Counted from the first letter of the stretch, positions 3,923 through 54,756 are shown. The stretch is 64,000 nucleotides of DNA from Alphaproteobacteria bacterium (GCA_046348645.1 JAXMDU010000004.1:32645-96644); one strand, 5' to 3'. Notes: generated by a model not told the origin, from the letters alone. Numbers and translations: made by a program.

Positions 3923-5116
3923 TCACGGGCCGAGGGCCCCGTCCAGGTCGGCGAGGATGTCGTTCACGTCCTCGAGGCCGATCGACAGCCTGACGGTCCC
4001 ATCCGTGATGCCCATGCCGGCTCGTTCCGCGGGCGTCAGGCGCTGATGGGTCGTGGTGGCGGGATGGGTGGCCAGGCTTTTTGCATCGCCCAGGTTGTTG
4101 GAAATGTCGACCAGCGTCAGGCGATCGAGAAAACGGAACGCCGCGTCCTTGCCGCCCGCGAAGTCAAGCACGACGATGTTCGCGAAGTCCCGCATCTGTG
4201 CCTTGGCAAGCGCGTGTTGGGGGTGGCTGGCAAGACCGGGATAAAGAACCCGCGCCAGCCCCGGTCGCCCATCGAGGAACGTGGCGACGCGGCGCGCATT
4301 CTCGCAATGGCGGGCCATGCGCAATGACAGGGTCTCCAGGCCCTTGAGCAGGACCCAGGCGTTGAACGGGCTCATCGCCGGGCCGGTATGGCGCAGGAAC
4401 GGGGTGAGCTCGTCATCGACATATTTGGCCGTGCCCAGCACCGCGCCGCCCAGCACCCGCCCCTGGCCGTCGATGTGCTTGGTTGCTGAATAGACAACGA
4501 TGTCGGCACCCAGTTCGAGTGGCTTCTGCAGCATGGGCGAGGCGAACACGTTGTCGACCACGACCCGCGCGCCGGCCGCGTGGGCCAGATCGGCAACCGC
4601 CCTGAGATCGATGATCTCGAGAGTCGGATTGGACGGCGTTTCCAGAAACACGGCCTTGGTCGGCCGCGACAGGGCCTGGGCCCAGGCGGAACGGTTGGTG
4701 CCATCGACAAAGACGGTCTCGATCCCCCAGCGCGGAAGGATTTCGCCGATGATGAACTGGCACGACCCGAACAGCGCGCGCGCCGCAACGACCCGGTCGC
4801 CGGCCCGCAGCTGGCAGGCAAGGCTGGTGAATACCGCCGCCATGCCGCTTGCGGTTGCCCGGCAGGCTTCGGCGCCTTCAAGCAGGGCAAGCCGATCCTC
4901 GAACATGCGCACGGTGGGATTGGAGAAGCGCGAATAGACGAAGCCGGGCTCCTGATTCTTGAAACAGGCCTCGGCCTGCTCGGCCGAGTCATAGACGAAC
5001 CCCGACGTCAGGAAGAGCCCTTCGCTGGTCTCGCGGAACTGGCTGCGCACGGTACCGCCGCGAACCAGCTTGGTCTCGGGGTTCCAGGTCTTCGGATCTG
5101 CTGGTGGCTTTGTCAT
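3923..5116 (-). CDS. metZ: O-succinylhomoserine sulfhydrylase (PLP-dependent Cys/Met metabolism family)
   Basis: ORF 3923-5158; strong MetZ-like sequence (NPTVRMFEDRLALLEGAEA...SATKHIDGQGR...SPFNAWVLLKGLETLSLRM). Start chosen at internal ATG (MTKPPADPKTW) preceded by GAGGA. Confidence 0.85.
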   Translation of the reverse strand: MTKPPADPKTWNPETKLVRGGTVRSQFRETSEGLFLTSGFVYDSAEQAEACFKNQEPGFVYSRFSNPTVRMFEDRLALLEGAEACRATASGMAAVFTSLACQLRAGDRVVAARALFGSCQFIIGEILPRWGIETVFVDGTNRSAWAQALSRPTKAVFLETPSNPTLEIIDLRAVADLAHAAGARVVVDNVFASPMLQKPLELGADIVVYSATKHIDGQGRVLGGAVLGTAKYVDDELTPFLRHTGPAMSPFNAWVLLKGLETLSLRMARHCENARRVATFLDGRPGLARVLYPGLASHPQHALAKAQMRDFANIVVLDFAGGKDAAFRFLDRLTLVDISNNLGDAKSLATHPATTTHQRLTPAERAGMGITDGTVRLSIGLEDVNDILADLDGALGP

Positions 5117-5245
5117 CACATCGTCCTCACCGCCGACCGGGCCGCGACGCGCCAACAAAAAACCCGCCCACTCACTGTCGGAGCGGCCGGGCGCTACGAC
5201 CTTTTAGCGGGTTGTTTAACGTGGCCGCAAGCCGGTCGGCTCAAA
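5117..5245 (-). promoter_or_regulatory. metZ leader with candidate SAM riboswitch-like element and hairpin plus U6 attenuator
   Basis: Minus-strand leader contains GCUUGC and CUAAAAGG boxes followed by a bulged GC stem ending in GGGCGGG and UUUUUU, then GAGGA and the start codon. metZ leaders in alphaproteobacteria commonly carry SAM-II; not verified by covariance model. Confidence 0.25.
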
Positions 5246-5301
5246 TCACCACGGTGCCGCTCTCATAGGACGCAGCGCCATGGCCGTCAAGCTGCACCCC
5301 A

Positions 5302-9626: not shown

Positions 9627-11504
9627 TCAGCCGATTCGGAAAATTTCGATCGGGCTGCCGCGCCCGCGCAGCATGAACGTTCCAAGCGAAATCTCGTCGG
9701 TGTCCCGGCCGGCCGCCGTCACCACGCTTCGGGATGCGAGAATGATCCAGTCCTCGCCGTCGCGATGGAAGTTCTTCGCCAGATCTTCGATCCGCTGCGC
9801 CGCATTCACCGTATCGCCAACCACCGTGTAATTGAGCCGCGTTGGCGCGCCGATGTTGCCGACCACGGCCGGCCCCGAATGCAGGCCGATGCGGACGCGA
9901 ATGGGGGCCAGGCCATCACGCCGCCGGCGCCGATTGGCCTCGCCCAGCCTGGCGGTGATCGCAAGCGCCGCGCGCACGGCGCGTTCGCCATGATCGACCA
10001 GGGGTTCAGGCGCCCCCCAGAAGGCCAGCATCGCATCGCCGATGTACTTGTCGACGGTTCCGCCTTCGGCCTCGACGCAGTCCGCCAGCATGGCGAAATG
10101 CTCGTTCAGCAGATCGACCAGATGCCCGGCCGGAAGGTGTTCGGCCATCTTGGTGAAGCCGGTGATGTCGACGAACATGACGGTGATTTCGCGCGTTTCG
10201 GTATGCACGTTCTCGATCGCGCCCCGGCGGACCAGGGTTGCGACCAGGCTGCTTGGCAGATAGCGCATTGCCCCGCGCAGGAAGCCGAGCATGGTGTTGA
10301 AATCGTGGACGGCCGCATCGATTTCGACCACCCCGCTTGCCCGCACCGGCCGGACGCGATCAAGGTCGAGCCGGCGGACCCGGCGGGCGGCCACCGCGAA
10401 GCGCCGAAAGGGCCGCGCCAATCGGCGGCTGATCATCAGCGTCAGCAGCATGGCGAAACCGATCAGGATCCCGCCAACCAGCGCGATCAGGCGAATGCGA
10501 TCGGTCTGGCGTTCGATCTGCGCATAGGGCGCGAAGACCTGGATCGTCCACGCTTCGGGTCCGAAACTCCTGACTTGGCGCTCGCCGATGAAATAGTCCA
10601 TGCCGTCGGCGCGGGTGGAGCGGGAGCGGAACTCCTCACCACCCTCGGCGAAGTCGGGCTGGTCCGCGGCAAGGGCAAGGCTGGTCAGGACCGGATCGTT
10701 GACCTCCCAGGATCGCGCCAGCGGCTTCTGATCGCTTAGCGCTGGCGGCGCAGCAAGAGCCCAGGACTGGGCAACCACTTCGTCGCGGTCACGAACGATG
10801 ACCGCACGCCAGCCAGTCGACGCAAGCTCGCGCTCGAGATACTCGCTCAGGTCGGCGATCGACAGAACCGAGACCAGGGTGCCGAAATTCTGGCCGTTGC
10901 GACCAAGCGGCGTATGGATCGTGAGAAAGGTTCTTTGGACCGATTCGGCAAAGAAGAAATTGCCCCATTGCGGACCGTCACGCCCGGCCACTTCGGCCGC
11001 AATCCGTCGCAGGTTTGAATCCTGTGACCAGTCCGAGCGCCAGATGGCCCCGCTGCTGCGCTGGGCGCGCAGGGCCTTGCCGTTCCAGTCGACGAAGGCA
11101 AGCTGCCGGACCTGCGGTGCGGCTGCCAGCGCCGCGATCAGGGCCGGCCCGAAGACCTGATCCCGGCGCGGATCAAGATCGCCCCGCTTGACCAGGTCGG
11201 CAACATAGGCGGCCTGCACCATGGCGGGATTGAAATGCGAGTGGATCTTGCGCTCGATCTCGTCGACCAGTTGCGAAGCCTCTTCATGGAAGAGTTCGCT
11301 GGTGTTCCGTTCCGCCACCGCAATGCCAAGCGCAAGCGCAAGCGCGCTTGGGGCGACGATCAGGGCGGCGATCCCAAGGACCAGGTGCCGCAACGACAAG
11401 GCCGGCAGCGGCCGCAGGCGCAGGCGGGGCGTATCAAGGTGGGGCGTCGTTACGCCACTGGCGACGGAGACGGATGCCGTCAGCCCGGCCGCATTGTCGA
11501 CCAT
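9627..11504 (-). CDS. membrane-anchored class III adenylate/guanylate cyclase with N-terminal sensor and HAMP-like region
   Basis: Two hydrophobic segments flank a roughly 300-aa extracytoplasmic region; cyclase core VMFVDITGFTKMAE...DKYIGDAMLAFWGAP...RIGLHSGPAVVGNIG. Confidence 0.75.
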   Translation of the reverse strand: MVDNAAGLTASVSVASGVTTPHLDTPRLRLRPLPALSLRHLVLGIAALIVAPSALALALGIAVAERNTSELFHEEASQLVDEIERKIHSHFNPAMVQAAYVADLVKRGDLDPRRDQVFGPALIAALAAAPQVRQLAFVDWNGKALRAQRSSGAIWRSDWSQDSNLRRIAAEVAGRDGPQWGNFFFAESVQRTFLTIHTPLGRNGQNFGTLVSVLSIADLSEYLERELASTGWRAVIVRDRDEVVAQSWALAAPPALSDQKPLARSWEVNDPVLTSLALAADQPDFAEGGEEFRSRSTRADGMDYFIGERQVRSFGPEAWTIQVFAPYAQIERQTDRIRLIALVGGILIGFAMLLTLMISRRLARPFRRFAVAARRVRRLDLDRVRPVRASGVVEIDAAVHDFNTMLGFLRGAMRYLPSSLVATLVRRGAIENVHTETREITVMFVDITGFTKMAEHLPAGHLVDLLNEHFAMLADCVEAEGGTVDKYIGDAMLAFWGAPEPLVDHGERAVRAALAITARLGEANRRRRRDGLAPIRVRIGLHSGPAVVGNIGAPTRLNYTVVGDTVNAAQRIEDLAKNFHRDGEDWIILASRSVVTAAGRDTDEISLGTFMLRGRGSPIEIFRIG

Positions 11505-39089: not shown

Positions 39090-40073
39090 ATGAAAGCCTG
39101 GGTTATCGACCGCCACGGGGATCCGACCGTTTTCGCCGAGACCGAGGTCGCACCCCCCGAGGTCAAGGCCGGCCACGTCCTGATCGAGGTGGCGGCCACC
39201 AGCGTCAACCCCATCGATACCAAGCTGCGCCAGAACCCGGCGCCCTTTGCGCCGGCCTTGCCGGCCATCCTGCACGGCGACGTGGCGGGCACCGTGGCGG
39301 CCGTGGGCAGCGGCGTCGCCGGCTTCAAGCCCGGCGACGCGGTCTATGGCTGCGCAGGCGGCGTCCGCGGGCAAGGCGGCGCACTGGCGGATTTCATGCT
39401 GGCCGACGCCCGGCTGCTTGCGCCCAAGCCGCAAAGCCTGTCCATGGCCGAGGCGGCCGCGCTGCCGCTGGTCGCCCTGACCGCCTGGGAAGGGCTGATG
39501 GACATGGCCAGGCTGCGGGCCGGGCAGAGCGTTCTCATTCACGGCGCCGGGGGCGGCGTCGGCCATGTAGCGGCCCAGATCGCCAAGGCGGCGGGCGCCG
39601 CCGTTGTCGGCACCGGCTCGCGCCCCGAGACGCTGGCCCTGATCCGCAGCCTTGGGGTCACCGCCGCCGACTACAAGTCACAGGGCGGCGCCGATCTGGT
39701 GAAGACGTATACCGGCGGGCGGGGGTTCGACGTGGTGTTCGACATGACCGGGGCCGATGCGCTGGCCGCAACTGCGGAAACGGTGCGAACCCGGGGCCAG
39801 GTTGTGTCCATCGCCGGTTTCGGGCGGGTGAACATGACCAGCCTCTTCATGAAAGGCGTCTCGATCCACTTCGTGTTCATGATCATCCCCATGCTGACCG
39901 GCGAGGGGCGCGAACGCCATGGCGAGATCCTGCGGTCGGTCGCGCGACTGGCCGACCAGGGACGTTTGAAGCCCCATCTCGATTCGGAGCATTTCACATT
40001 TGCCCAGGTGGCCGATGCCCACCGCCGGCTTGAATCCGGCAAGGCAGTCGGGAAGGTCGTCCTGACCCGCTAA
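39090..40073 (+). CDS. MDR-family zinc-binding dehydrogenase / quinone oxidoreductase
   Basis: MKAWVIDRHGDP...VLIEVAATSVNPIDTK...GQSVLIHGAGGGVGHVAAQIAKAAGA; start at internal ATG of ORF 38406-40073. Confidence 0.8.
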   Translation: MKAWVIDRHGDPTVFAETEVAPPEVKAGHVLIEVAATSVNPIDTKLRQNPAPFAPALPAILHGDVAGTVAAVGSGVAGFKPGDAVYGCAGGVRGQGGALADFMLADARLLAPKPQSLSMAEAAALPLVALTAWEGLMDMARLRAGQSVLIHGAGGGVGHVAAQIAKAAGAAVVGTGSRPETLALIRSLGVTAADYKSQGGADLVKTYTGGRGFDVVFDMTGADALAATAETVRTRGQVVSIAGFGRVNMTSLFMKGVSIHFVFMIIPMLTGEGRERHGEILRSVARLADQGRLKPHLDSEHFTFAQVADAHRRLESGKAVGKVVLTR

Positions 40074-40320
40074 CAGGCTGGCCCGTTGGCAGGCGACCTG
40101 AGCGCAAGCATCGCTGTCGGCGGATTTTGCATCGGCCGGGATCGCCGCCCGGCCTCGCTCGCCCCGACAAATATCATTTTATTTCAACAGCTTGATTGAC
40201 AACCGGCGGGTGGCACGACGGGCCGGCAAGGTTCGGTGCGGCATTTTTCCCTGTCGAGAATCTTTACACTTGCCGGCGCCGGACCTCGCCCTATCCCAGC
40301 AAGCCGCTGGAAAACAACAA

Positions 40321-40354
40321 TTAACCATGTTTGGCACGGCTCTTGCATGGTTAA
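40321..40354 (+). promoter_or_regulatory. sigma-54 (-24/-12) promoter TGGCACG-N4-TTGCA embedded in a perfect 9-bp inverted repeat
   Basis: ttaaccatg TT TGGCACG gctc TTGCA tggttaa; consensus spacing exact; about 85 bp upstream of the PEP-CTERM gene start. Confidence 0.6.
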
Positions 40355-40431
40355 CGGCAGGTCGTGAACCGCGCCGGGTGCCAGACCGGCGCATGGGGCC
40401 GAAAACCAGAGCCACTATCCAGGAGGACACA

Positions 40432-41106
40432 ATGAAGAACCTAGCGATCGGACTGAGCGCTGCGCTCGCCCTTGCCATCGGCGGCACATGGCTTGGCGAC
40501 GCAAAGGCTGCGACCATTTCGGTTGAGAGCGGTGGCATCACCCTCAACTCGTTCGACACCACGAAAGCGGGCACCCTGGCAGATCCCTGGCTGATCGACG
40601 AGACGATGACCGCGCATGGCCATCTCAAGTTCTCGGGCGATGACGAACCGGGCGGCTCGAGCCCCCTTGGCGGTGCCAATCCGACGGGTAGCGGTCACGA
40701 CGAGGGTCGCTGGATCTCGAAGACGGTGCTGAACGATACCGGCATCACCTGGACGTCGTTCGAGCTTGAACTGCAGGTCCTTCTTGGCACGCCATCGGGT
40801 CAAGGCGACGGTCTCAGCTTCGCGGATGGCAGCAGCCTGACGACGCTCTTCACGTCGGACAAGTTCTCGTCCTACACGCGGTTCGACGTCGATCGCGACT
40901 ACCTGAACTTCAGCGGCGGCGAGGTCCTGGATGGCCAGTCGGTCACCTTCCTGTTCGTGATCACCGACAACCTGGCGAACGACCCGTTCTTCCTGCTGCA
41001 GACGCCGAACATCCGTGACGTGCCAGTGCCGGAACCGGCGACGCTGGGGCTGGTGGGCCTGGGCCTGGCCGGACTTGCGGCTTTGCGCCGGCGCAAGGCA
41101 TCCTGA
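40432..41106 (+). CDS. PEP-CTERM sorting-domain protein (exosortase substrate)
   Basis: Signal peptide MKNLAIGLSAALALAIGGTWLGDAKA; C-terminal VPVPEPATLGLVGLGLAGLAALRRRKAS (PEP motif, TM helix, basic tail). Confidence 0.85.
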   Translation: MKNLAIGLSAALALAIGGTWLGDAKAATISVESGGITLNSFDTTKAGTLADPWLIDETMTAHGHLKFSGDDEPGGSSPLGGANPTGSGHDEGRWISKTVLNDTGITWTSFELELQVLLGTPSGQGDGLSFADGSSLTTLFTSDKFSSYTRFDVDRDYLNFSGGEVLDGQSVTFLFVITDNLANDPFFLLQTPNIRDVPVPEPATLGLVGLGLAGLAALRRRKAS

Positions 41107-41130
41107 TCGCGCAGGATCGATCTGCGGAAA

Positions 41131-41160
41131 CGGCGGCCCCTGGGGCCGCCGTTTTCTTTT
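41131..41160 (+). terminator. rho-independent terminator
   Basis: CGGCGGCC cctgg GGCCGCCG followed by TTTTCTTTT. Confidence 0.7.
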
Positions 41161-41447
41161 CAGCCGGCCTTCTCTGACCCCGGCCTTCTCTGACCAGCGC
41201 AATCGGGCCAGGCTAGGGCAGGACCGGGCGATAATGCCGCGCGCGATCTCCTCGCCATCGGCCACAACCACATCCGCGCCGAAAGATTTGAGATAGGCTT
41301 GCTGCTCGCCCTTCGGGGCGTGCCCCGCGATGCGGATCCCGGTGTTTGCGGCCCGCCGGCCGCGGGGCCATTCAAGACCTGGCCCTGGTCATGCAGCCAG
41401 ACTGATTTGAATTATAATAAATCAATACCGTCGCTGTTGACCACCGC

Positions 41448-41461
41448 GTTGACTTCAGTCA
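41448..41461. promoter_or_regulatory. FNR/FixK-type box TTGAC-N4-GTCAA upstream of ubiT
   Basis: Perfect palindrome ttgacttcagtcaa centred about 34 bp upstream of the predicted ubiT start, next to an AT-rich stretch. Confidence 0.5.
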
Positions 41462-41487
41462 AAGACGACCCCAGCAATTCACCGAGA

Positions 41488-42066
41488 ATGGCCGCGATGT
41501 CGAGTTTCGCCCCCGCCCCGGAAGGGGCACCCTGCCTGCCGCCCCTGGCCGGCCGTCTGCTGGCGCCGTTGCCGCTGGGGCCGATCGCCCTGGTTGCCGG
41601 GCGCCTGTTGGGGCGGATCGCGCGCCACCATCCCGAGATGTTCGACCGCCTGGGCGAAAGCGCGACGAAAACCTTTCTGATCGACGCGACCGACCTGCCA
41701 TTCGTTTTTGTGCTGCGGCCCGATCCACTGCGCCCACGGATCGCCGTCACAAGACGGGGCCGTATCCCCGCATTCGATGCGCGAATCGCGGGCCCGCTGG
41801 CGGCTTTGCTGGGCCTTGTCCAGGGAACCTATGACGGCGATGCCCTGTTCTTTTCGCGCGACCTGATGATCGAAGGCGACGTGGAAGCGGTGCTGGCGCT
41901 GCGCAACGCCATCGACGATGCCGAGCTTGACCTGCTGAGCGAAGCCACCGGCCTGTTAGGGCCGCTTCGCCGGCCGGCCGAAGCCCTGTCGCGCGACGTG
42001 TTGCCGGTCATTCATTGGCTGGCGCGGGCATTGCCGCCCCAGCCCCTGGGTCGCCGCGCCCCATGA
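41488..42066 (+). CDS. ubiT: SCP2-domain ubiquinone biosynthesis accessory factor UbiT
   Basis: LFFSRDLMIEGDVEAVLALRNAIDDAEL resembles E. coli UbiT (YhbT); stop overlaps ubiU start (ATGA); start uncertain (41488 or 41497). Confidence 0.65.
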   Translation: MAAMSSFAPAPEGAPCLPPLAGRLLAPLPLGPIALVAGRLLGRIARHHPEMFDRLGESATKTFLIDATDLPFVFVLRPDPLRPRIAVTRRGRIPAFDARIAGPLAALLGLVQGTYDGDALFFSRDLMIEGDVEAVLALRNAIDDAELDLLSEATGLLGPLRRPAEALSRDVLPVIHWLARALPPQPLGRRAP

Positions 42067-43055
42067 CCCCCCGGCACCTGGAACTGGTCTGCCCGGCTGG
42101 AACGCCGGCAGCCCTGCGCACCGCGGTCGATGCCGGGGCGCACGCCATTTATTGCGGCTTCAATGACGAAACCAACGCCCGCAATTTCCCCGGCCTGAAT
42201 TTTTCGCGCCAGGACATGGCCAGGGGCATTGCCTATGCCCACGGCAAGGGTGCCAAGGTGCTGGTCGCCATCAACACCTTTCCACGCGCCGGCGCCGAGA
42301 CGCTTTGGCACCGGGCCGTCGCCGACGCCGATGCAGCGGGGGCAGACGCGATCATCCTGGCCGATATCGGCCTCTTGGCCTTTGCGCGCGACCACCACCC
42401 GCGGCCACGCCGCCATGTGTCGGTGCAGGCGGCGGCCGCCAATCCCCAGGCCATCGCGTTCTACACCGGCGAATTCGGCGTCAAGCGTGTGGTGTTGCCG
42501 CGTGTCCTGTCGGTTGCCGAGATTGCCGCCATCAACCGCCAGATCGACTGCGAGACCGAGGTCTTCGTCTTCGGCGGTCTGTGCGTCATGGCAGAGGGGC
42601 GTTGTTCCCTGTCGTCCTATGTCACGGGAAAGTCGCCCAACATGAATGGCGTCTGCTCGCCCGCCAGCGACGTCAGCTACCAGACGATCGGAACATCGGT
42701 CGTCTCCCGCCTCGGCGGATTCACCATCGACCAGGCCTCGCGCGACGAGCCGACCCCTTATCCGACCCTGTGCAAGGGATGCTTCAAGTCCGGTGCCTAT
42801 ACCGGCCATGTCTTTGCGGAACCGGCAAGCCTTGACGCGGCCGAACTGATCCCCGCCCTGGCCGAGGCCGGCGTTTCGGCGCTCAAGCTTGAAGGCCGGC
42901 AGCGGAGCCGCGCCTATGTCGGCAATGTCGTAAGCACGTTTCGCCGCGCGGTCGATGCCTATGCGGCGGGAAAGCCCATTCCAGCCGGGCAGTTGCAGGC
43001 GATGAGCGAAGGGCAAAGCACGACGGCCGGGGCCTATGTCAAGACCTGGCGATAG
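42063..43055 (+). CDS. ubiU: U32-family O2-independent ubiquinone hydroxylase subunit UbiU
   Basis: Peptidase U32 features (LELVCPAGTPAALRTAVDAGAHAIYCG, conserved Cys cluster) plus ubiT-ubiU-ubiV order. Confidence 0.7.
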   Translation: MTPRHLELVCPAGTPAALRTAVDAGAHAIYCGFNDETNARNFPGLNFSRQDMARGIAYAHGKGAKVLVAINTFPRAGAETLWHRAVADADAAGADAIILADIGLLAFARDHHPRPRRHVSVQAAAANPQAIAFYTGEFGVKRVVLPRVLSVAEIAAINRQIDCETEVFVFGGLCVMAEGRCSLSSYVTGKSPNMNGVCSPASDVSYQTIGTSVVSRLGGFTIDQASRDEPTPYPTLCKGCFKSGAYTGHVFAEPASLDAAELIPALAEAGVSALKLEGRQRSRAYVGNVVSTFRRAVDAYAAGKPIPAGQLQAMSEGQSTTAGAYVKTWR

Positions 43056-43064
43056 GACGGCGCC

Positions 43065-43997
43065 ATGACCGCCATGCCACCCGGGCGAATGGGTCTCACG
43101 CTGGGGCCGGTGCTGTTCCATTGGAATGGCACGCAGCTTTCCGATTTCTATGTCCGGATCGCGGACGAAGCGCCGGTCGAGCGGGTCTGCATCGGCGAGG
43201 TAGTCTGTTCGAAGCGCTTGCCAAGCGTCATCGACAGCCTGGCCCGGGCCATCGAACGCCTGGAACGGGGCGGCAAGGAGGTCATTCTTTCGACCCTTTC
43301 CCTCGTCACCCTGGAGAACGAAAGAAACCGGGTCACGGATCTGGTTCGCGACGCCGCCATGCCCGTCGAAGTGAACGATATTTCGTCCGTTCCGGCGGTT
43401 CAGGGACGCGCCTTCACGGTCGGCCCGTTCGTCAACATCTACAATGAAAGCACGCTCGGCTATTTTGCGCGCCATGGCGCGACGCGCATCTGCCTGCCGC
43501 CCGAACTGCCGCTGTCGTCCATCGCGGTCCTGGCCCGGACCGGCGCGCCGCTTGGCGTTGCCTGCGAGGTTTTCGGCTTCGGGCGTGTGCCGCTTGCCAT
43601 GTCAGGCCGCTGCTATCACGCCCGCCTGCACGGGACGCGCAAGGATGCCTGCCAGTTCGTGTGCGAAAAGGACGCCGACGGGCGGCCCGTCGATACGCTG
43701 GACGGGCAGCCGTTCCTGGCGGTGAACGGCGTCATGACCATGTCGCAGAGCTGCGTCAACCTGATCGAGGATGTCCGCGACATCGCGGGCGCCGGGATCG
43801 ATTCGATCCGCCTGTCGCCCCAGACCTGCGACATGGTCCGGGTCGCGAAGATTTTCCGCGCCGCCATCGATGGCGAGCGGGACCCGGCCGCCGCGCGCCA
43901 GGACCTGGCCGCGCTCATTCCCTTCGCGCCCTTTTCGAACGGGTTCCTGCACGGGACGCGCGGCGTCGCCTATGTCGGTCCCGCAGAGGCCGGCTGA
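43065..43997 (+). CDS. ubiV: U32-family O2-independent ubiquinone hydroxylase subunit UbiV
   Basis: U32 family (YhbV-like), cysteines CEVFGFGRVPLAMSGRCYHARLHGTRKDACQFVC; last 20 codons lie in the left direct repeat. Confidence 0.7.
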   Translation: MTAMPPGRMGLTLGPVLFHWNGTQLSDFYVRIADEAPVERVCIGEVVCSKRLPSVIDSLARAIERLERGGKEVILSTLSLVTLENERNRVTDLVRDAAMPVEVNDISSVPAVQGRAFTVGPFVNIYNESTLGYFARHGATRICLPPELPLSSIAVLARTGAPLGVACEVFGFGRVPLAMSGRCYHARLHGTRKDACQFVCEKDADGRPVDTLDGQPFLAVNGVMTMSQSCVNLIEDVRDIAGAGIDSIRLSPQTCDMVRVAKIFRAAIDGERDPAAARQDLAALIPFAPFSNGFLHGTRGVAYVGPAEAG

Positions 43998-44217: not shown

Positions 44218-47200
44218 CCGCCGAGCTCACCCTCAGCATCCCATCAACCCAGGAGCACAATAACCCCAGACTCTACTTGTGAATACGATCAAAGCCAGGA
44301 GCACTTCAGCGTCACAGAATGAGAATTCTGTGGAAGCACACTTTTTACGCTTCTTCGCTCCGTTTTTTCGTTGTTGCAACCCACCGCCGTGACGCGCCTC
44401 CTGCCTTGCCTCGCTTTTTCTTCCCTCCCAGATTCACAGCCCCCTTACACTTCGGGTAGTCAGCGCATCCATAGAATGGGCCGAAACGTCCGTTGCGAAG
44501 CTTAGTAGGCCCACCGCATTCAGGGCATGGAGGCCCATCCTTCTGCAGTGACGGATCGGACGGGGAGCTTTTTCGTCCAGACGTGCCCCGCGCACTGTCG
44601 TGCCAGCCGCAGCCTTCCTCATCCTCGCATGTAAAGTACGGGCCGTAGCGGCCCTCCGCATAATATGTTCGCGAGTTGCAGTTCGGGCATCGCGGATTTT
44701 CTGCCTCGGCTACCGTCGAAGCTGCCTCCGCTCGCGCGATCCCAATCCTCTTCGAGACGAATGCAGCAACCTGTTCTGCGAACCCTTCGCTTTCGGCCCT
44801 GGTCATGAACTCATCTGTTCGAGACGTATGTGACAAGGGATTGAGAGAGCCCGACCAGATGACGCGATTATCAATCAAGACGATCTTCTCATGAATGTCG
44901 CGCCGGCAATCGACGACCACCCCAATTCCTTCCAAAGCATCCAAGGCTTGTTTCCCAAGCTCCTCGGGAATTGAGCCGTTGAACCGGGGTGGCCTCGTTA
45001 CACACCGAATTGCGACTCCGTCGCCGATTTTTGTTCTGAACAGGTCTCCATAGGACGCTACACGCTCCGGCGTTATGAAGCCGGAATACATGACAATCGA
45101 CCGCTCCGCCCGGTTCATATCCACCAGACAAGCGTCGGCGAATGTTTTGGAGTGAAACAGCCCGAGCTTCTCTGCATCCAGATCAAGCTCAACAATGCCC
45201 ATGAGGTCTTTCAGATCGCGTTCAATCGGACGCAACGCCATCACTTCGGAAGCGTCGATCACACGACCATGTTCCTGCGCAGTGTGCAGGATACCTCTAA
45301 GCAACGCGGTGCTGGGCAGATGCATATCGAGATAGGTCAGATTGGCCAGCACCAAGAGGTGCTCTTGAGCCCGGCTGACGGCGACGTTCATGAGTCGGGC
45401 ACCGACGTGCTTAGGAGGGATACCCTGCACAAACAACCCAATCCTCCGACTTGGCCCAATGCTTTCAGGGATATCGAGGATCATCATGCGCTTTTCGTCG
45501 CCTTGATAACGATGGACTGTACCGGTCGCGGCGAGTTGGGCCACTGGCTCCATATCCCCAATAAGCTTCTGCAACAGTTTGGCTTGTGCTGCATAGGGCG
45601 TGCATACACCGAGCGCGCTTGAGCTATCCAGAAATCCGTTTGATGCTAAATAGCCGACAAGATTTCGGATGAGAAGCGCATTCAGAAGGTTGAATCGGGA
45701 TTTAAAGATGTTTCGGCTTTCGAACGGCCATAGTCTGGACGTATCGATGATGGTAAGCGCCCCGTCATATGGCGCAGGCGGTCGTGGGCCGTTGGGCCGA
45801 TGGCGTTCTTTGGCCGTTGTAAGCCTTCCTTGATACATGTCTGTCGCGATGAGGCCGCATATCTCGTCCGTCATGCGATACTGAGTATCGAGCAGCGCAT
45901 ATCTGGGATCTTCGCTCTTTCCGTCGATGCCCGCCGACTCAAAGACATCCTGCCCAATGAGATCGTGGATTGCCTGTTGGCGGCTCGGCAAGATCGGCGG
46001 GAGCTGTCGGAAATCACCAGAAACGATCACCCGTTCCGTTGACAGGCCCGCAGCGAAATAAAGCGCGGGCAGAAGCACCATCGACGCTTCGTCAATCACG
46101 ACAACATCAAACCGGCCTATGTCACGTGCCTGGAGGTACGACTTTGCAACAGTTGTCCCGATCACGCGCGCCTCACGCATGATCGACGCTTCCATTTCCG
46201 CTAACCGCCGCGCAATTTCCTGAAGTTCGGCCACAAGCGGCTGACGTTCACCATCAATCGCCTGTCTGTCCCTTTCAAGCTGTTGCCGGTCTTGTACAGA
46301 GAGCTGGGATGCCAAGGATTCAGCCGAAGATCGCACTTCGTTACGTTTGTTCTCTAATGTCTTGGCTTCGGCCGTCCCGTTTCGAACAATTGCTTCCTGA
46401 CGCGCTATTTCCGATTCGGCACGTCGATAGTCGCTTATGATTATCTCATCGGAACGAAGAAAAACGCGACGCAACACGCCTGCGCTTTTCCGCTGTTGCA
46501 GCTCAGCTTTGCAGTCCTGAATTTGTTGCTGCGCCTTTTCATAGGATGCGGCAGCAGTCTTTATGGCGTTAAGGCATGTGTTCAGTTGCTGATTGAGGGA
46601 TGTCAGCTTGCTTTCGGTCCTATCAAGCCGCGCAAAGAGCTGAAGCTTTTCGTTTATAGATGTCGCTTTGGCGTCGAACAGCGCCACTTGTTCTTCCAGC
46701 TCGTGTTGTCGCTCCCTGAGTCCCTTCGACAACCGTTCGATAATACCGTCTGTCGTCACATAGGATGCGTACTCGTTCTTAAGCTCCGGAAGGACAATGT
46801 TGCCGATGCGAACAACTTTGCCTTCTTCAAACGCGGCATGTTTGAGATGCTCCAGATGACGGCAAAGCTTATAGATAAGCTGATCAACAGCCTGGTTCGT
46901 GTTGGAGCAGACGAGGATACGCTTTCCAGCGTCAAATGCGGCTTGAATGCCGACGGACAGTGTTTGCGTTTTTCCCGTCCCCGGAGGTCCCCACAGGTAT
47001 GAAATGCTGTGCTCCAGCATCAAGTGCAGTGCAGCGTTCTGGCTATCATTCAGATCGTGAGGCGGCACGCCGATTGGCGACACTTCGGAGTTGTGGATTT
47101 CCTTGGATACGACGCTATCCGCCACTGATGCAGATAGATTCAGTTCGCCCTTGCCCACCTGATCAAGGCGGTCTTTCAGTGCTTCGATCAGAGCCGTGTT

Positions 47201-48103
47201 GTCGATGAGAAGTATGCAACGTCGGATTGATGGTCCCAGGTTGCCATCCAGCGAAATAAGTATGGTCCCTTCCGATATTGATACGATTTGCCCTCTGCTA
47301 CGTCGGCCATCGACTTCAATTTCTATTCGCGCTTCCTCGAAAATCTCCGCTTCTTCAGAGAACGGGAATACATAGATAGGTTGGCCCGCCTGCGTGTCTA
47401 CGACTTTGCCGCGCTCCAGTTCATAACGGCGACTGCCGCTACCTTCTCTTCGCATTTCGCTTATCAGGGCGTCGAGCGCGAGAACATAGCGCTGTATGTT
47501 TGTGGAATCCTGCGGCAGATCGATAACCAGATCGGTGTCCAGAGCCGGTTGGTAGGCATCAGGCTTTCCCCTAACCCCTGGAGCAGCGATCCCGGTGAAA
47601 TGTTGCGGTATCCTCCTGTCATCAGGTTGCTCGTCCGGGATAGACGGAGTTGATACTTCAGCAGGCCTTTGGCTCGCCGAAGCGAATGATGCCGCTGGGT
47701 CTGAAGATGTACGGGAAGGTACGGGCCGGTTCTCCGGGCGCACGCCAACAGGCTGCCCCTCAAACAAGTGGCCGGTTGGCGCAGGGCCTTCCCTTGATTG
47801 GTTCTCTATTGCTGTGAGGCGTTCTTCAACTCGGCTACGAAGCCTCTTTGCCCGGTCGGTCTTCCGGTGTTCAAGCTCATCGAGAAGGCTCCGCATCGTG
47901 GCCCGCTCTTCGCCTTTTTCGGCGAAAAGCTTCTCAAGCTGGACTATTCCATGCTGGATGAAGGTCCGCTTCATTCTTGGTCGCCTGCCTCAAGCGCCGT
48001 TCCTTTGCTCCCAGGAAAACGTATGCCACTTCGGATGGTAAGAATTTCTCAAGACCATAGTGTTGCCCCCTAGAATAGTGCCGACGGCGAGGTAACGCTT
48101 CTT
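44218..48103. mobile_element. putative horizontally acquired insertion (about 3.9 kb, lower GC), no integrase/transposase, single cargo gene
   Basis: GC about 47-52% in sampled lines versus about 60-75% in flanks; bounded by the 281/283-bp direct repeats; interrupts the 3' region of the HMG-CoA lyase-like gene. Confidence 0.55.
44345..47974 (-). CDS. 1209-aa fusion: Upf1-like SF1 helicase + PLD (HKD) nuclease domain + two topoisomerase-type C4 zinc ribbons
   Basis: Helicase motifs WGPPGTGKTQT, VCSNTNQAVDQL, VVVIDEASM, SGDFRQLPP, QYRM, VHRYQGDEKRMMILD, NVAVSRAQEHL, with about 250-aa coiled-coil insert between Walker A and B; HKD motif HEKIVLIDNRVIWSGSLN; ribbons CPNC...C..C and CPEC...C..C; K/R-rich tail. 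Confidence 0.75.
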   Translation of the reverse strand: MKRTFIQHGIVQLEKLFAEKGEERATMRSLLDELEHRKTDRAKRLRSRVEERLTAIENQSREGPAPTGHLFEGQPVGVRPENRPVPSRTSSDPAASFASASQRPAEVSTPSIPDEQPDDRRIPQHFTGIAAPGVRGKPDAYQPALDTDLVIDLPQDSTNIQRYVLALDALISEMRREGSGSRRYELERGKVVDTQAGQPIYVFPFSEEAEIFEEARIEIEVDGRRSRGQIVSISEGTILISLDGNLGPSIRRCILLIDNTALIEALKDRLDQVGKGELNLSASVADSVVSKEIHNSEVSPIGVPPHDLNDSQNAALHLMLEHSISYLWGPPGTGKTQTLSVGIQAAFDAGKRILVCSNTNQAVDQLIYKLCRHLEHLKHAAFEEGKVVRIGNIVLPELKNEYASYVTTDGIIERLSKGLRERQHELEEQVALFDAKATSINEKLQLFARLDRTESKLTSLNQQLNTCLNAIKTAAASYEKAQQQIQDCKAELQQRKSAGVLRRVFLRSDEIIISDYRRAESEIARQEAIVRNGTAEAKTLENKRNEVRSSAESLASQLSVQDRQQLERDRQAIDGERQPLVAELQEIARRLAEMEASIMREARVIGTTVAKSYLQARDIGRFDVVVIDEASMVLLPALYFAAGLSTERVIVSGDFRQLPPILPSRQQAIHDLIGQDVFESAGIDGKSEDPRYALLDTQYRMTDEICGLIATDMYQGRLTTAKERHRPNGPRPPAPYDGALTIIDTSRLWPFESRNIFKSRFNLLNALLIRNLVGYLASNGFLDSSSALGVCTPYAAQAKLLQKLIGDMEPVAQLAATGTVHRYQGDEKRMMILDIPESIGPSRRIGLFVQGIPPKHVGARLMNVAVSRAQEHLLVLANLTYLDMHLPSTALLRGILHTAQEHGRVIDASEVMALRPIERDLKDLMGIVELDLDAEKLGLFHSKTFADACLVDMNRAERSIVMYSGFITPERVASYGDLFRTKIGDGVAIRCVTRPPRFNGSIPEELGKQALDALEGIGVVVDCRRDIHEKIVLIDNRVIWSGSLNPLSHTSRTDEFMTRAESEGFAEQVAAFVSKRIGIARAEAASTVAEAENPRCPNCNSRTYYAEGRYGPYFTCEDEEGCGWHDSARGTSGRKSSPSDPSLQKDGPPCPECGGPTKLRNGRFGPFYGCADYPKCKGAVNLGGKKKRGKAGGASRRWVATTKKRSEEA

Positions 48104-50968: not shown

Positions 50969-52021
50969 TCAGCTTGCGCCTTTCTTGGCCTCGCTCAGAA
51001 CGAAGTCGAGCATCTGCTGGGCGGGATAGCCCTTCGGCGTCATCTCCTTCACCCATTCGTCCCAGACGGGTTGCCCCCCGACACGGGCGAATTCCTCGCG
51101 CATGGCGGGCGGGATCACCACCGTCCTAACACCCCGTTTCTTGAAGGCATCCTCGGCCTTGTCTTCTTCGGCCTGCAGGGCGTCGCTCTGGGCTTTGTGG
51201 GCCGCGGGGGTGACATCGAGAATCACCTTCTTGTACTGGGGCGGCAGCTTGTTGAAGGCATCGCGATTGAAATCGACATTCGAGATCGACACGCCGAGCG
51301 CCAGGCCCTTCGTGTACCACTTGCTGATCTCGTGAAGCTTGTAGACCTCGAAGGCGTAATAGGCGAAACCGGCGGCGTCGATCACGCCGCGCTCCAGGCT
51401 GCCATAGACCTCGGGGCTGGTGACCGAGGTGGCCACGGCGCCAAGCTTGGCCATCGCCGCGCCCTGACCGCCGATCGCGCGCACCCGCAGGCCTTTCCAG
51501 TCGGAAAGCTTTTCCGGCGCCTTGCCGGTGCCCATGAACTCGTAGGACGGAATGACATTCGACAGGCCGTAATTGACGTTCCAGACATCGAAATCCCGCT
51601 TCACGAACGCATGCCGATGGAAGATATCCGAGACGCGTGTCTGGGTTCTCAGGTCATCGAGCGGAAGGAAGGGCAGGCTCAGCACCGCAAGGCCGGGCTG
51701 CTTGCCCGGCGCGAAGGCGGGCACCACCCATCCCGCTTCATAGGCCCCGAGCTTGAGGCCGTCCAGGACTTCCTTTTCAGGGGACAGGGTCGCGCCATAG
51801 ACGACCTCGATCCTGAAATTGCCGTTCGTCTCGGCGGCGACAAGTTCCGAGAACTTGTCCATCGAGATCGAAACGGCGCGTGGCTTGCCATAGGCGGCCA
51901 GCCGCCAGTGGACCTTGGGCCCGTCGACGGCGGCCTGGGCCGCCGCCGCAGAGCCGAAAACAAGCGCCGCCCCAAGCGTGATCGCCGCGACGGTCATACC
52001 AAAACGATAATGCAAGAACAT
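50969..52021 (-). CDS. periplasmic solute-binding protein, TRAP DctP-like family (orphan)
   Basis: Start MFLHYRFGMTVAAITLGAALVFGSAAAAQA after GGAGGA; fourth SBP paralog. Confidence 0.55.
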   Translation of the reverse strand: MFLHYRFGMTVAAITLGAALVFGSAAAAQAAVDGPKVHWRLAAYGKPRAVSISMDKFSELVAAETNGNFRIEVVYGATLSPEKEVLDGLKLGAYEAGWVVPAFAPGKQPGLAVLSLPFLPLDDLRTQTRVSDIFHRHAFVKRDFDVWNVNYGLSNVIPSYEFMGTGKAPEKLSDWKGLRVRAIGGQGAAMAKLGAVATSVTSPEVYGSLERGVIDAAGFAYYAFEVYKLHEISKWYTKGLALGVSISNVDFNRDAFNKLPPQYKKVILDVTPAAHKAQSDALQAEEDKAEDAFKKRGVRTVVIPPAMREEFARVGGQPVWDEWVKEMTPKGYPAQQMLDFVLSEAKKGAS

Positions 52022-52208
52022 GGCAGATTTTCCTCCGTGCGCCTTTGATCTGATTGTTGTGATTTGCAGAGCACGTTGCCGGTTGTCCGGCAGAGCCGAT
52101 CCCGACATTGCATCCATGATTGCCCAAATGCTGGAAAAGTCGAGGGGAAATGCGCGGCCCTCAATTCATGCAATTCGGTCGCACATGCAAGATGGCGACT
52201 GGAAATGG

Positions 52209-52237
52209 AAAAAGCCCGCCACGGGTCAGCGCGGCGG
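52209..52237. repeat. 29-bp direct repeat copy 1 (AAAAAGCCCGCCACGGGTCAGCGCGGCGG), degenerate terminator
   Basis: Identical 29-mer recurs at 52989-53017; together they bracket a roughly 750-bp lower-GC segment. Confidence 0.8.
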
Positions 52238-52401
52238 CATGAACGGCCGAACATTCGCCGTCGCCTTCATCGAAGGACTGCCAAAACCGCAACCAGAAAA
52301 GGAGGAGAAGCAATCCGAAATACGAGACACCAACAAAGTCGCCTGACGCCCCCGCTCACCGCGGCACTGTCAGCCGATTACCCTCTCCGTACATGTTTTG
52401 C

Positions 52402-52869
52402 CTACCGCGCCCCTGAAAGCTGCAAGAGTCCGGACCAAGCGTTCACGATAACGACAAACATTCCGCAAAGTATGACAATAAACAAACCGGTCGTTACGGG
52501 CCAATCATACCAAAAACTGACGCGATCACGGTTTACTTCGCCGTAGACCTCTCGCGCATCTTTCTCAAATCTACCGTATAGGCGATTCAACCTCTCTCTT
52601 TTCTCTTTCATTGAATCCGTCGCGTAGACGATCACCATCAACCACATCTCCGCCACACCGATAGCGGCAATCGTAAGAATGGTCTTCCCCCAGCACGTCA
52701 GAGCGAACGGTGTCCGTGTCAAAAAGTACAGAGCGGCAAAGAGCAGCAGGGCATAATTCGTGATCTTCCAAGTCCTATCCTTCATGGCCGCGATATGTGC
52801 GATGGCGTCGCGGTGAATCATGTCGTACGCCCGCTGCGTTTCGACCTGTTCGGGTTGCTTTTCCTCCAT
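52402..52869 (-). CDS. small membrane protein of unknown function, 155 aa, three predicted TM helices, low GC
   Basis: Start MEEKQPEQ after AAGGAG; hydrophobic stretches ITNYALLLFAALYFL, ILTIAAIGVAEMWLMVIVYA, TTGLFIVILCGMFVVIVNAW; GC about 48%. Confidence 0.55.
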   Translation of the reverse strand: MEEKQPEQVETQRAYDMIHRDAIAHIAAMKDRTWKITNYALLLFAALYFLTRTPFALTCWGKTILTIAAIGVAEMWLMVIVYATDSMKEKRERLNRLYGRFEKDAREVYGEVNRDRVSFWYDWPVTTGLFIVILCGMFVVIVNAWSGLLQLSGAR

Positions 52870-52985
52870 GGCCGACTCCTTCAAATGTATCACCTTGAAT
52901 AGGCTACCGAGGATTAAGCCGTGTTTGGAAAAATTCCAGCGCGCCAATGTTGCAAAGGCGAGAGGCCCACATGCCCGAGAGCGCC

Positions 52986-53030
52986 AATAAAAAAGCCCGC
53001 CACGGGTCAGCGCGGCGGGCTTTTGTCTTT
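52986..53030 (-). terminator. rho-independent terminator for the MaoC-like gene; includes 29-bp repeat copy 2
   Basis: GCCCGCC...GGCGGGC stem; minus-strand RNA ends in UUUUUUAUU, plus strand has TTTTGTCTTTC. Confidence 0.75.
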
Positions 53031-53044
53031 CGTCTGTCAGCCGA

Positions 53045-53500
53045 TCAACGGGGCCGCTTCAGCATCATGCCGGCGCGCTTCGTGCTCATCACGCACTGGT
53101 TGTGCTGGTTGAAGCCCTCGTGCAGGCATTCGACCACGCCGCGATCGGGTCGCGTCTTGCTTTCCCGCTTGCCGATGATCGTGGTCTGGCCACGCAGCGT
53201 GTCGCCCGGGAAGACCGGGTTCGGGAACTTTGTGTCCGCAAAGTACAGATTGCCAAGCGTCGTGCCGAGGGTCAGCTCGGTCACCTGCAGGGCGGTGACG
53301 AACGACATCACATAGAGCGGGTTGATCTCGACCCGCTTGAACCGCGCATGCTGGGCCGCCCACTCTTCGTCCATGTAAGTGGGTTCGGTTTCCATGCACA
53401 TGCATGTGTACCAGATGCTGTCCGGCAGGGTCATCGTCCGCGTCACCTCGTGGCGATAGACCTTGCCGACCTCAAACTCCTCGAAATAGAGACCTGCCAT
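53045..53500 (-). CDS. MaoC-like (R)-specific enoyl-CoA hydratase / hotdog-fold dehydratase
   Basis: Start MAGLYFEEFEVGKVYRHEVTRT; 152 aa. Confidence 0.7.
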   Translation of the reverse strand: MAGLYFEEFEVGKVYRHEVTRTMTLPDSIWYTCMCMETEPTYMDEEWAAQHARFKRVEINPLYVMSFVTALQVTELTLGTTLGNLYFADTKFPNPVFPGDTLRGQTTIIGKRESKTRPDRGVVECLHEGFNQHNQCVMSTKRAGMMLKRPR

Positions 53501-53532
53501 GTGATGTCCTTCCCGTTCCCTTCCTATTTCCA

Positions 53533-53568
53533 AGCCCGTTGCCTGGCCCGTTCCTCGGCGTGTTCCCT
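53533..53568. repeat. 3 degenerate tandem 12-bp units (GCCCGTTCCTNG-like) downstream of ACAD 53584-54756
   Basis: gcccgttgcctg / gcccgttcctcg / gcgtgttccctg. Confidence 0.5.
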
Positions 53569-53583
53569 GGCGCGGGCCGGCCT

Positions 53584-54756
53584 TCAATATGATTTTGGCA
53601 GCCCGAGCACCCGTTCGGCAATATACGACAGAATGAGCGGCGGTGGAATTGGTCCGATGCGGAGCACCTGGACCTCGCGCAGATAGCGCTCGACATGGAA
53701 CTCCTTGGCATAGCCCATGCCGCCATGGGTCATGATCGCCTGCTCGCAGGCCTCGAACCCGGCCTCGGCCGCCAACCACTTGGCGGCATTGGATTCAGGG
53801 CCGCAGGGCTCGCCCTGGTCGTAGAGCGTGGCGGCCTTGAAGGCCATCAGGTTGGCGGCCTCGAGCTTGCACCAGGCCTCGGCCAGCGGGTGCTGGATGG
53901 CCTGGTTCTGGCCGATGGGGCGGCCAAAGACGACGCGATCACGCGCATACTGGGTGGCCCGCCGCAGGCCGGCCCGGCCCATGCCCACACATTCCACCGC
54001 CACCAGGATGCGTTCCGGGTTCAGGCTGTCCAGGAGGTAGTAAAAGCCTTTGCCCTCCTCGCCGATCAGGTCTTCCTTGGGGACCGGCATGCCGTCATAG
54101 AACACCTGGTTCGAATCGACCGCGTGGCGGCCCATCTTCTGGATTTCCCGCACCTCGGCGTATTTCTTGTTGAGGTCGGTATAGAAAAGGCTCAGGCCAT
54201 CGATCGGGCGCTTGGTCTTCTCGATCGGCGTGGTGCGCGCGATCAGCATCACCTTGTTGGCAACCTGGGCGGTCGAGGTCCAGATCTTCTGGCCCGAGAT
54301 GATGTAGCGCTGGCTCTTGGCATCCCACTCGGCCTTGGTGGTGAGATGGGTGGTGTCGATGCCGGCCCCGGGCTCGGTAACGCCGAAGGCCGAGCGGTCC
54401 TTCAGGGTGATGAGCCGATTGACCCAGCGGCGCTTCTGTTCGTCGGTGCCGTATTTCACGATGGCACCGGGCCCGAAGATGTTGACGTGCACCGCCGAAC
54501 AGGCGGCAAGACAGCCGCCTGATTCGGCGATCGTCTGCATCATCAGCGCCGCTTCGGTATAGCCCAGGCCCGAGCCGCCGTATTCCTCGGGCATGATGAT
54601 GCCAAGATAGCCGGCCTCCGCCATGGCCTTGGCAAAATCGTGCGGGAATTCGTGCTTGGTGTCGCGCTCGAGCCAGTAGGAATCGCTGAAGCCTTCGCAA
54701 ATCTTGGCAACGCCGTCCCGGATTGACAGTTGTTCCGGGGTAAACTTGAAATCCAT
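53584..54756 (-). CDS. acyl-CoA dehydrogenase (LGLPKSY paralog group)
   Basis: MDFKFTPEQLSIRD...FGVTEPGAGIDTT...GGMGYAKEFHVERYLRE...LGLPKSY. Confidence 0.85.
   Translation of the reverse strand: MDFKFTPEQLSIRDGVAKICEGFSDSYWLERDTKHEFPHDFAKAMAEAGYLGIIMPEEYGGSGLGYTEAALMMQTIAESGGCLAACSAVHVNIFGPGAIVKYGTDEQKRRWVNRLITLKDRSAFGVTEPGAGIDTTHLTTKAEWDAKSQRYIISGQKIWTSTAQVANKVMLIARTTPIEKTKRPIDGLSLFYTDLNKKYAEVREIQKMGRHAVDSNQVFYDGMPVPKEDLIGEEGKGFYYLLDSLNPERILVAVECVGMGRAGLRRATQYARDRVVFGRPIGQNQAIQHPLAEAWCKLEAANLMAFKAATLYDQGEPCGPESNAAKWLAAEAGFEACEQAIMTHGGMGYAKEFHVERYLREVQVLRIGPIPPPLILSYIAERVLGLPKSY

Follow-up and report, generated by a model that had tools for sequence, protein, structure and literature searches.

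What does a perfect palindrome mean when it brackets a promoter? In the window, by which we mean the whole 64-kb stretch of DNA analysed here, positions 40321-40354 read TTAACCATG-tt-TGGCACG-gctc-TTGCA-TGGTTAA and hold a consensus sigma-54 promoter inside an inverted repeat. A preliminary description, whose letters and coordinates for this segment all proved correct on re-reading, had recognized the promoter of a PEP-CTERM gene under PrsK/PrsR-type control and had suggested that the repeat is an operator or a DNA-structure element gating RpoN. The promoter and its regulatory context stand; the function proposed for the palindrome does not. We consider it highly probable that a PEP-CTERM gene transcribed on its own has its core promoter at 40321-40354, with the known PrsK/PrsR-sigma-54 architecture, and that the palindrome is incidental.

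The putative sigma-54 promoter, tTGGCACGgctcTTGCa (40331-40347, + strand), matches all specified positions of the consensus yTGGCACGrnnnTTGCw, taken as quoted in PMC12754779. It is made up of TGGCACG (40332-40338), GCTC (40339-40342) and TTGCA (40343-40347), all on the + strand, with the GG of the -24 element at 40333-34 and the GC of the -12 element at 40345-46, at the canonical separation of 10 nt. From the position of the -12 GC, and with a start expected ~12 nt past it, transcription is predicted to begin at 40358 (+1, +/- 2 nt; + strand). This is the one full-consensus sigma-54 site in the 64-kb window. The shorter pattern TGGCAC-N5-TTGC, which occurs once, turned up at least once in 25 of 100 shuffles, so the core -24/-12 match is not significant by itself; the promoter is credible because of its position, its conservation and the boxes upstream of it. 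Two other candidates were set aside. The next-best sigma-54 site (15430-15415, - strand, 11 of 12 matches) falls within the coding sequence of an acyl-CoA dehydrogenase and was discounted. A - strand terminator-like match at 40341-40323 was also rejected, since no gene leads into it and such matches are near the shuffle background.

The surroundings of the promoter follow a published plan. Haft et al. (2006; BMC Biol 4:29, PMC1569441) described a cis-region upstream of 99 of 167 proteobacterial PEP-CTERM genes, in which a 17-nt motif 1 with the 3' end TTTACA, repeated at times, is separated by 62.8 +/- 10.6 nt from a 17-nt motif 2 that conforms to the sigma-54 -24/-12 consensus. Motif 2 lies on average 71 +/- 38.5 nt from the start codon, and most of the genes form operons of one gene, preceded by >200 nt of intergenic DNA. 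The DNA motif had a phylogenetic profile that agreed with those of the NtrC-type response regulator PrsR, the histidine kinase PrsK, and PrsT, and the region was assigned to PrsK/PrsR/PrsT plus sigma-54; the box was reported in Proteobacteria only (PMC1569441).

We find no essential difference from this region in the window. Motif 1 is present in two copies on the + strand: a proximal box, TGTCGAGAATCTTTACA (40252-40268, about -106 to -90), which is a 17-nt TGT-N11-ACA dyad ending in TTTACA, and a distal copy, TGTCGGCGGATTTTGCA (40115-40131, about -243 to -227). Both are candidate sites for PrsR as enhancer-binding protein. The 64 kb contain no match to TGTCG-N6-TTTRCA beyond these two boxes, which share one intergenic region and are 137 bp apart, or ~13 helical turns. 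The spacer between the proximal box and the sigma-54 motif is 62 nt (40269-40330), motif 2 is a 17-nt consensus -24/-12 element, the ATG lies 84 nt downstream of it, and the gene, a transcription unit of its own in an alphaproteobacterial host, is preceded by 358 nt of intergenic sequence (40074-40431). The window adds three lineage-specific extras to the published region: the invariant CATGGTT that follows the -12 element, the palindrome, which is not conserved, and an IHF-like block located between the boxes. Judged by this layout, the promoter is of a type already described, in which sigma-54 and upstream PrsR-type activator boxes serve a single PEP-CTERM surface-protein gene.

Comparison with related genomes points the same way. 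We compared homolog loci whose proteins are 89, 81, 78, 76 and 68% identical to that of the window. The same upstream alcohol dehydrogenase (ADH) gene is found in L007 (78%), L008 (76%) and L009/L010 (68%), and in L006 (89%) the upstream position is taken by an ORF fragment that carries no annotation, and an SCP2 (UbiT-like) gene lies downstream. The intergenic regions of the orthologs have diverged (mean column identity 54-57%), and the blocks that stand out in the alignment are TGTCGGYGGATTTTGCA, TATTTCAAT...TTR, CTTGTCG-N6-TTTACAC, the -24/-12 promoter and the Shine-Dalgarno sequence. What phylogenetic footprinting retains across the 89-68% identity loci is confined to the boxes, the IHF-like block, the promoter and the Shine-Dalgarno sequence. 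The promoter is kept in five diverged orthologous loci. Consensus, published box-spacer layout and ortholog conservation together support the earlier identification of a sigma-54 promoter of a PrsK/PrsR-type PEP-CTERM gene.

The boxes are constrained in sequence and in placement. TGTCG and TTTACA of the proximal box are invariant in the six orthologs with a conserved promoter, and the box-to-promoter spacer measures 61-63 nt in L006, L035, L007, L008 and L009. L006, L007 and L009-L011 also keep the distal box, 135-137 bp away from the proximal one. More distant family loci share this layout, with a spacer of 63 nt in Accumulibacter (L013) and 59 nt in Geobacteraceae (L016); in Burkholderiales L014 and Leptothrix L015 the boxes are degenerate. 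Three further loci (L036, L037 and L040, with homologs P0007, P0012 and P0021) are non-syntenic, and their upstream regions are short or different. In L036 the proximal box begins GTCG; a TTTACA box is still present there, and a degenerate GG-N10-GC site can be made out by eye.

Between the two boxes lies the IHF-like site TTTCAACAGCTTG (40182-40194, +; about -176 to -164), preceded by an A/T tract and conserved as the block TATTTCAAT...TTR in alignments A1 and A3. We call it IHF-like by reference to WATCAANNNNTTR, which we take to be the IHF consensus: the window has one mismatch, and the site is perfect in ortholog L009 (TATCAATGGGTTA). IHF would bind at 40182-40194.

The gene itself (40432-41106, +) encodes a 224-aa PEP-CTERM protein with a signal-peptide-like N-terminal segment and the C-terminal segment VPEPATLGLVGLGLAGLAALRRRKAS, its tail having the form VPEP...RRRK. 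The protein scores 33.1 bits against Pfam PF07589 (cutoff 20.7) and 27.5 bits against TIGR02595 (cutoff 16), and is identical to NCBI MFO1188319.1, a PEP-CTERM protein from an Alphaproteobacteria MAG. It has 230 homologs, many at 50-89% identity; a PDB sequence search with the family profile gave no significant match. A Shine-Dalgarno sequence, AGGAGG (40421-40426, +), stands 5 nt before the ATG; it is invariant in the six orthologs with a conserved promoter and reads AGGGGA in the non-syntenic L036. Downstream of the gene, an intrinsic terminator composed of ACGGCGGCCCC-T-GGGGCCGCCGT followed by TTTCTTTT (41130-41160, +) folds as RNA at -32.3 kcal/mol (z = -3.4; 0 of 200 shuffles as stable). 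The strong hairpin and its T-tract argue that the PEP-CTERM gene is a single transcription unit.

The leader predicted from the inferred start at 40358 is ~74 nt long and has a weak consensus RNA fold (-3.8 kcal/mol, 7 pairs). An Rfam search of 40000-41300 gave no leader match, its sub-threshold chance matches falling on the terminator hairpin only. We also noted in the leader the sequence GTGCCA (40378-40383, ~+21), an inverted copy of the -24 element TGGCAC. GTGCC is kept in four of six orthologs, and the leader has no strong conserved RNA structure.

Genes of this kind have been studied experimentally as pepA in floc-forming Betaproteobacteria. In Aquincola tertiaricarbonis RN12, RpoN1 is needed for the transcription of pepA, whose start has been mapped 3' of TGGCAC/CTGCTT, and an enhancer sequence lies upstream (PMC9850573). 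In Zoogloea resiniphila MMB, according to the summary of Gao et al. (2018) in PMC9012009, PepA expression depends on PrsK/PrsR/RpoN. The window resembles these systems in that a gene for a small secreted PEP-CTERM protein follows a -24/-12 promoter with an enhancer sequence further upstream. It differs in its -12 element (consensus TTGCA, against CTGCTT in Aquincola), in its host, an alphaproteobacterial MAG, and in its setting amid fatty-acid and ubiquinone genes rather than in an EPS cluster. Dependence on RpoN and PrsK/PrsR was demonstrated by experiment for the Aquincola and Zoogloea pepA genes, the latter as summarized. The window protein aligns over its C-terminal half (residues 99-222 only) to the floc_PepA equivalog model NF033554 at 43.3 bits (E = 3.8e-11), under the cutoff of 80; by this score it is related to PepA but not an equivalog. 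The published layout and these experiments, so far as the summary conveys them for Zoogloea, support both the promoter call and its premise that PEP-CTERM/exosortase loci are often under sigma-54-dependent PrsK/PrsR control (PMC1569441, PMC9850573, PMC9012009).

We propose that the promoter would work as follows. Sigma-54 holoenzyme would bind the -24/-12 elements (40331-40347) and remain locked as a closed complex, and PrsR~P, an NtrC-family enhancer-binding protein, would bind to the TGTCG-N6-TTTRCA pair, near -98 and -235. Looping of the DNA may be aided by the IHF-like site and by the AT-rich spacer that precedes -24. ATP hydrolysis by PrsR would then open the promoter, with transcription starting near 40358, and the mRNA, with its ~74-nt leader, would end at the terminator at 41130-41160. 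The PEP-CTERM protein would be exported and then passed to an exosortase. What the sequences show directly are the matches, their spacings, how they are conserved and the lack of covariation; the binding of PrsR, IHF and sigma-54, the start of transcription and the cause of the constraint on the stretch from -11 to -6 we infer.

The trans-acting factors are assumed rather than seen, because their genes are not in the window. The 64 kb contain no gene for rpoN, prsR (TIGR02915), prsK (TIGR02916), prsT, exosortase (EpsH) or a histidine kinase; Pfam detected no sigma-54, enhancer-binding-protein or exosortase domain among the 47 window ORFs submitted to it, and a six-frame search of the window found neither a GAFTGA nor an RpoN-box motif. 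By Pfam, these ORFs either have no match or encode UbiTUV, a helicase, proteins of acyl-CoA metabolism and a small number of further enzymes.

The neighbourhood of the gene is metabolic. Upstream, a zinc-type ADH gene ends at 40073, a name that comes only via ortholog annotations (the Pfam annotation given to the identical upstream ORF in L001/L002/L004). Directly downstream of the PEP-CTERM gene, at 41299-43997 (+), lie ubiT-ubiU-ubiV, for O2-independent ubiquinone biosynthesis. An SCP2/UbiT-like gene likewise follows the PEP-CTERM gene in contigs with the identical protein; in L006, a Na+/H+ exchanger gene intervenes between the two. Positions 3.9-35.6 kb and 49-64 kb hold an unusually dense acyl-CoA catabolic cluster, with nine CoA-transferase family III paralogs, six acyl-CoA dehydrogenases, enoyl-CoA hydratases, thiolases, AMP-forming ligases and three DctP-type binding proteins. 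A low-GC island at 44-48 kb (GC 0.53-0.58) is occupied by a single 1209-aa ORF (44345-47974, -) with SF1 helicase (AAA_11/AAA_12), PLD-like nuclease and Top1-type zinc-ribbon domains. Its best PADLOC matches are Mokosh MkoA (182 bits) and MkoC (140 bits), and it is therefore probably a horizontally acquired Mokosh-like defence gene. In a second low-GC patch, at 52000-53000 (0.53), the ORFs 52402-52947 and 53045-53779 (-) had no PADLOC match.

We now turn to the palindrome. The inverted repeat is perfect, with 9-bp arms and 16 nt between them. The left arm, TTAACCATG (40321-40329, +), lies just upstream of -24 in an AT-rich spacer of conserved composition, and the right arm, CATGGTTAA (40346-40354, +), overlaps the -12 element. 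Such repeats are common: with loops of up to 30 nt, the window has 48 perfect ones of 9 bp, against ~16 in block shuffles, and the repeat at 40321-40354 is the only one with AT-rich arms (0.24 expected). The arm 9-mer TTAACCATG has no copy elsewhere in the 64-kb window. That an AT-rich perfect 9-bp repeat should be centred on the window's single sigma-54 site is improbable a priori, at ~0.4-1%, a rough estimate from the window repeat density.

The two arms fare differently in the orthologs. We followed them in an ungapped 44-bp core alignment of six sequences, including the window. The left arm is TTAACCATG in the window and L006, where it is complementary to the right arm at nine of nine positions; it is TTAACAAAA in L035 (6/9), TTTACCAAG in L007 (6/9), TTTGCGAAC in L008 (4/9) and TTAATAAAA in L009 (3/9). 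The AT-rich spacer in which it lies keeps its composition, not its sequence. No equally good repeat in another register was found in the orthologs, pair counting gave zero compensatory changes between the arms, and the observed pairing is no better than in shuffles. Of the nine right-arm bases, seven fall inside the invariant block CTTGCATGGTT (40342-40352, +; -16 to -6), which extends the -12 element and is the longest invariant run of the intergenic alignment (A4 columns 27-37, identical in 6/6 sequences). This block is not common to more distant family promoters.

With the right arm conserved alone and the left arm drifting, the dyad is therefore found only in the window's shallow lineage. 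Across 40 loci, L001-L006 have both arms, L008 and L035 have the right one without the left, and L012 has one stray 9-mer; the palindrome is absent from more distant PEP-CTERM family promoters. A metagenome scan for TGGYAYGGCTCTTGCATGGTT returned five contigs in two unrelated contexts, with no PEP-CTERM gene, motif 1 or left arm, and added no further orthologs. These two unrelated metagenomic sigma-54-like sites share a near-identical core and the start of the right arm (TGGCAYGGCTCTTGCATGGTTA), and the left arm is missing.

Because it is not kept in related genomes, we regard the palindrome as most likely incidental: its perfect 9/9 complementarity, confined to the window's own lineage, is most likely fortuitous. 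By its conservation, the right arm is part of a lineage-specific, strongly constrained extension of the -12/melting region (CTTGCATGGTT). The idea that the repeat gates RpoN, whether as operator or as DNA structure, is thus not borne out: the left arm drifts in syntenic orthologs and does not covary, the right arm is conserved by itself, the repeat is absent from family promoters, and the hairpin that it could form is unremarkable.

The alternative that survives best, although we think it unlikely, is a lineage-specific operator, at which a dimeric repressor or nucleoid-associated protein would occupy the arms, or the RTTAAY hexamers within and beside them, and occlude or lock the promoter; negative control would then be added to PrsR activation. 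The perfect 9-bp dyad does bracket the -24/-12 elements, no other 9-bp inverted repeat in the window has AT-rich arms, and CATGGTT does not vary among the orthologs. The hexamers are also concentrated at the promoter. RTTAAY occurs in the window at 40320-40325, 40350-40355 and 40366-40371 (about -38, -8 and +6), the first two copies being contained in the palindrome arms. In L006, L035, L007, L008 and L009 it is likewise found at -38, -8 and +6 and nowhere else in the ~335-nt intergenic regions, with 1-3 copies per ortholog against 0.04-0.17 expected per sequence from shuffles. The motif is thus restricted to three recurrent positions around the promoter in all six orthologs.

A dimer operator should, however, keep both half-sites, and here the left one is lost in syntenic orthologs, the right one is invariant and compensatory changes are absent. 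Nor does the site recur at other promoters: there is no other copy in the window, and none in the 40 loci beyond close orthologs and one stray. Half-sites 25 bp apart, centre to centre, would be unusual for a simple dimer, and none of the adjacent genes encodes a regulator. The hexamer evidence is weakened by its origin, since the motif was defined after looking and the subsets of positions occupied vary among orthologs. A protein that binds on top of a sigma-54 promoter does exist in BosR, at the Borrelia rpoS -24/-12 promoter, a case that resembles the idea in the preliminary description of a factor contacting DNA that overlaps -24/-12. The window differs from it in that the dyad is not conserved, no regulator gene lies nearby and there is no sign of such a factor. 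A literature search for operators on sigma-54 promoters found no direct analogue.

A related possibility, which we judge quite unlikely, is that the RTTAAY triad would be the binding array of an extra protein clamping the PrsR/sigma-54 promoter, with the palindrome as a locally perfected -38/-8 pair. If true, this would be negative or architectural control exerted directly on a -24/-12 promoter, which is rare. We treat the hexamers as unexplained, because the motif was chosen post hoc, after inspection, and because the subsets at -38, -8 and +6 differ from ortholog to ortholog. The invariance of CATGGTT past the -12 element is likewise not accounted for by the general sigma-54 consensus. Most simply, the constraint on -11 to -6, in the region where melting of sigma-54 promoters begins, may reflect a promoter-strength or locking property of the lineage.

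It is very improbable that the sigma-54 match is a chance consensus and that the gene is transcribed from another promoter. An expectation of 0.27 occurrences of TGGCAC-N5-TTGC per window leaves room for chance, but the extended consensus is perfect and stands in the right place and orientation, the site is conserved in orthologs with diverged flanks, it is coupled to two PEP-CTERM boxes at the published spacing, and no sigma-70-like promoter was found on the + strand of the upstream intergenic region. Least credible of all is a cruciform or hairpin, driven by supercoiling, that would hide or expose the -12 element: the 9-bp arms could pair at every position, and the right one overlaps the -12 element and the melting region, but the arms are short and AT-rich, the loop is 16 nt, the single-stranded 44-mer folds at an ordinary -6.6 kcal/mol (z = -1.66, a stability reached by 14 of 200 shuffles), and the pairing is neither conserved nor accompanied by covariation.

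Similar elements were seen in two other settings. Locus L033 (Ga0315298_1001542) carries, on the - strand at reverse-complement position 4354, an unrelated sigma-54-like promoter with an identical TGGCATGGCTCTTGCATGGTTA core; ~30 nt further on are a Shine-Dalgarno sequence and a GTG-start ORF that does not encode a PEP-CTERM protein. In an uncultured Opitutus MAG, which is verrucomicrobial, homologous PEP-CTERM genes (L017, ~9780-9915; L024, ~5110-5275) are preceded by motif-1-like boxes (TGTCGGAAATTCTTACG; CGTCGGCAAATTTTACA) and sigma-54-like sites (TGGCACGGGCAAAGCT; TGGCGTTCCTGATGCT), with spacers of roughly 110-120 nt.

We thus favour the reading of 40321-40354 as a PrsR/sigma-54 core promoter with an incidental palindrome. 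For method, the locus illustrates how a striking, perfect promoter palindrome can dissolve once orthologs are aligned; what might still repay a specialist's interest is limited to the RTTAAY hexamers and the invariant block from -11 to -6. For the family, it would supply one more clean, comparatively footprinted PrsR/sigma-54 PEP-CTERM box, in an uncultured alphaproteobacterium, and it suggests that the target gene of such a box can stand alone amid unrelated metabolic genes.
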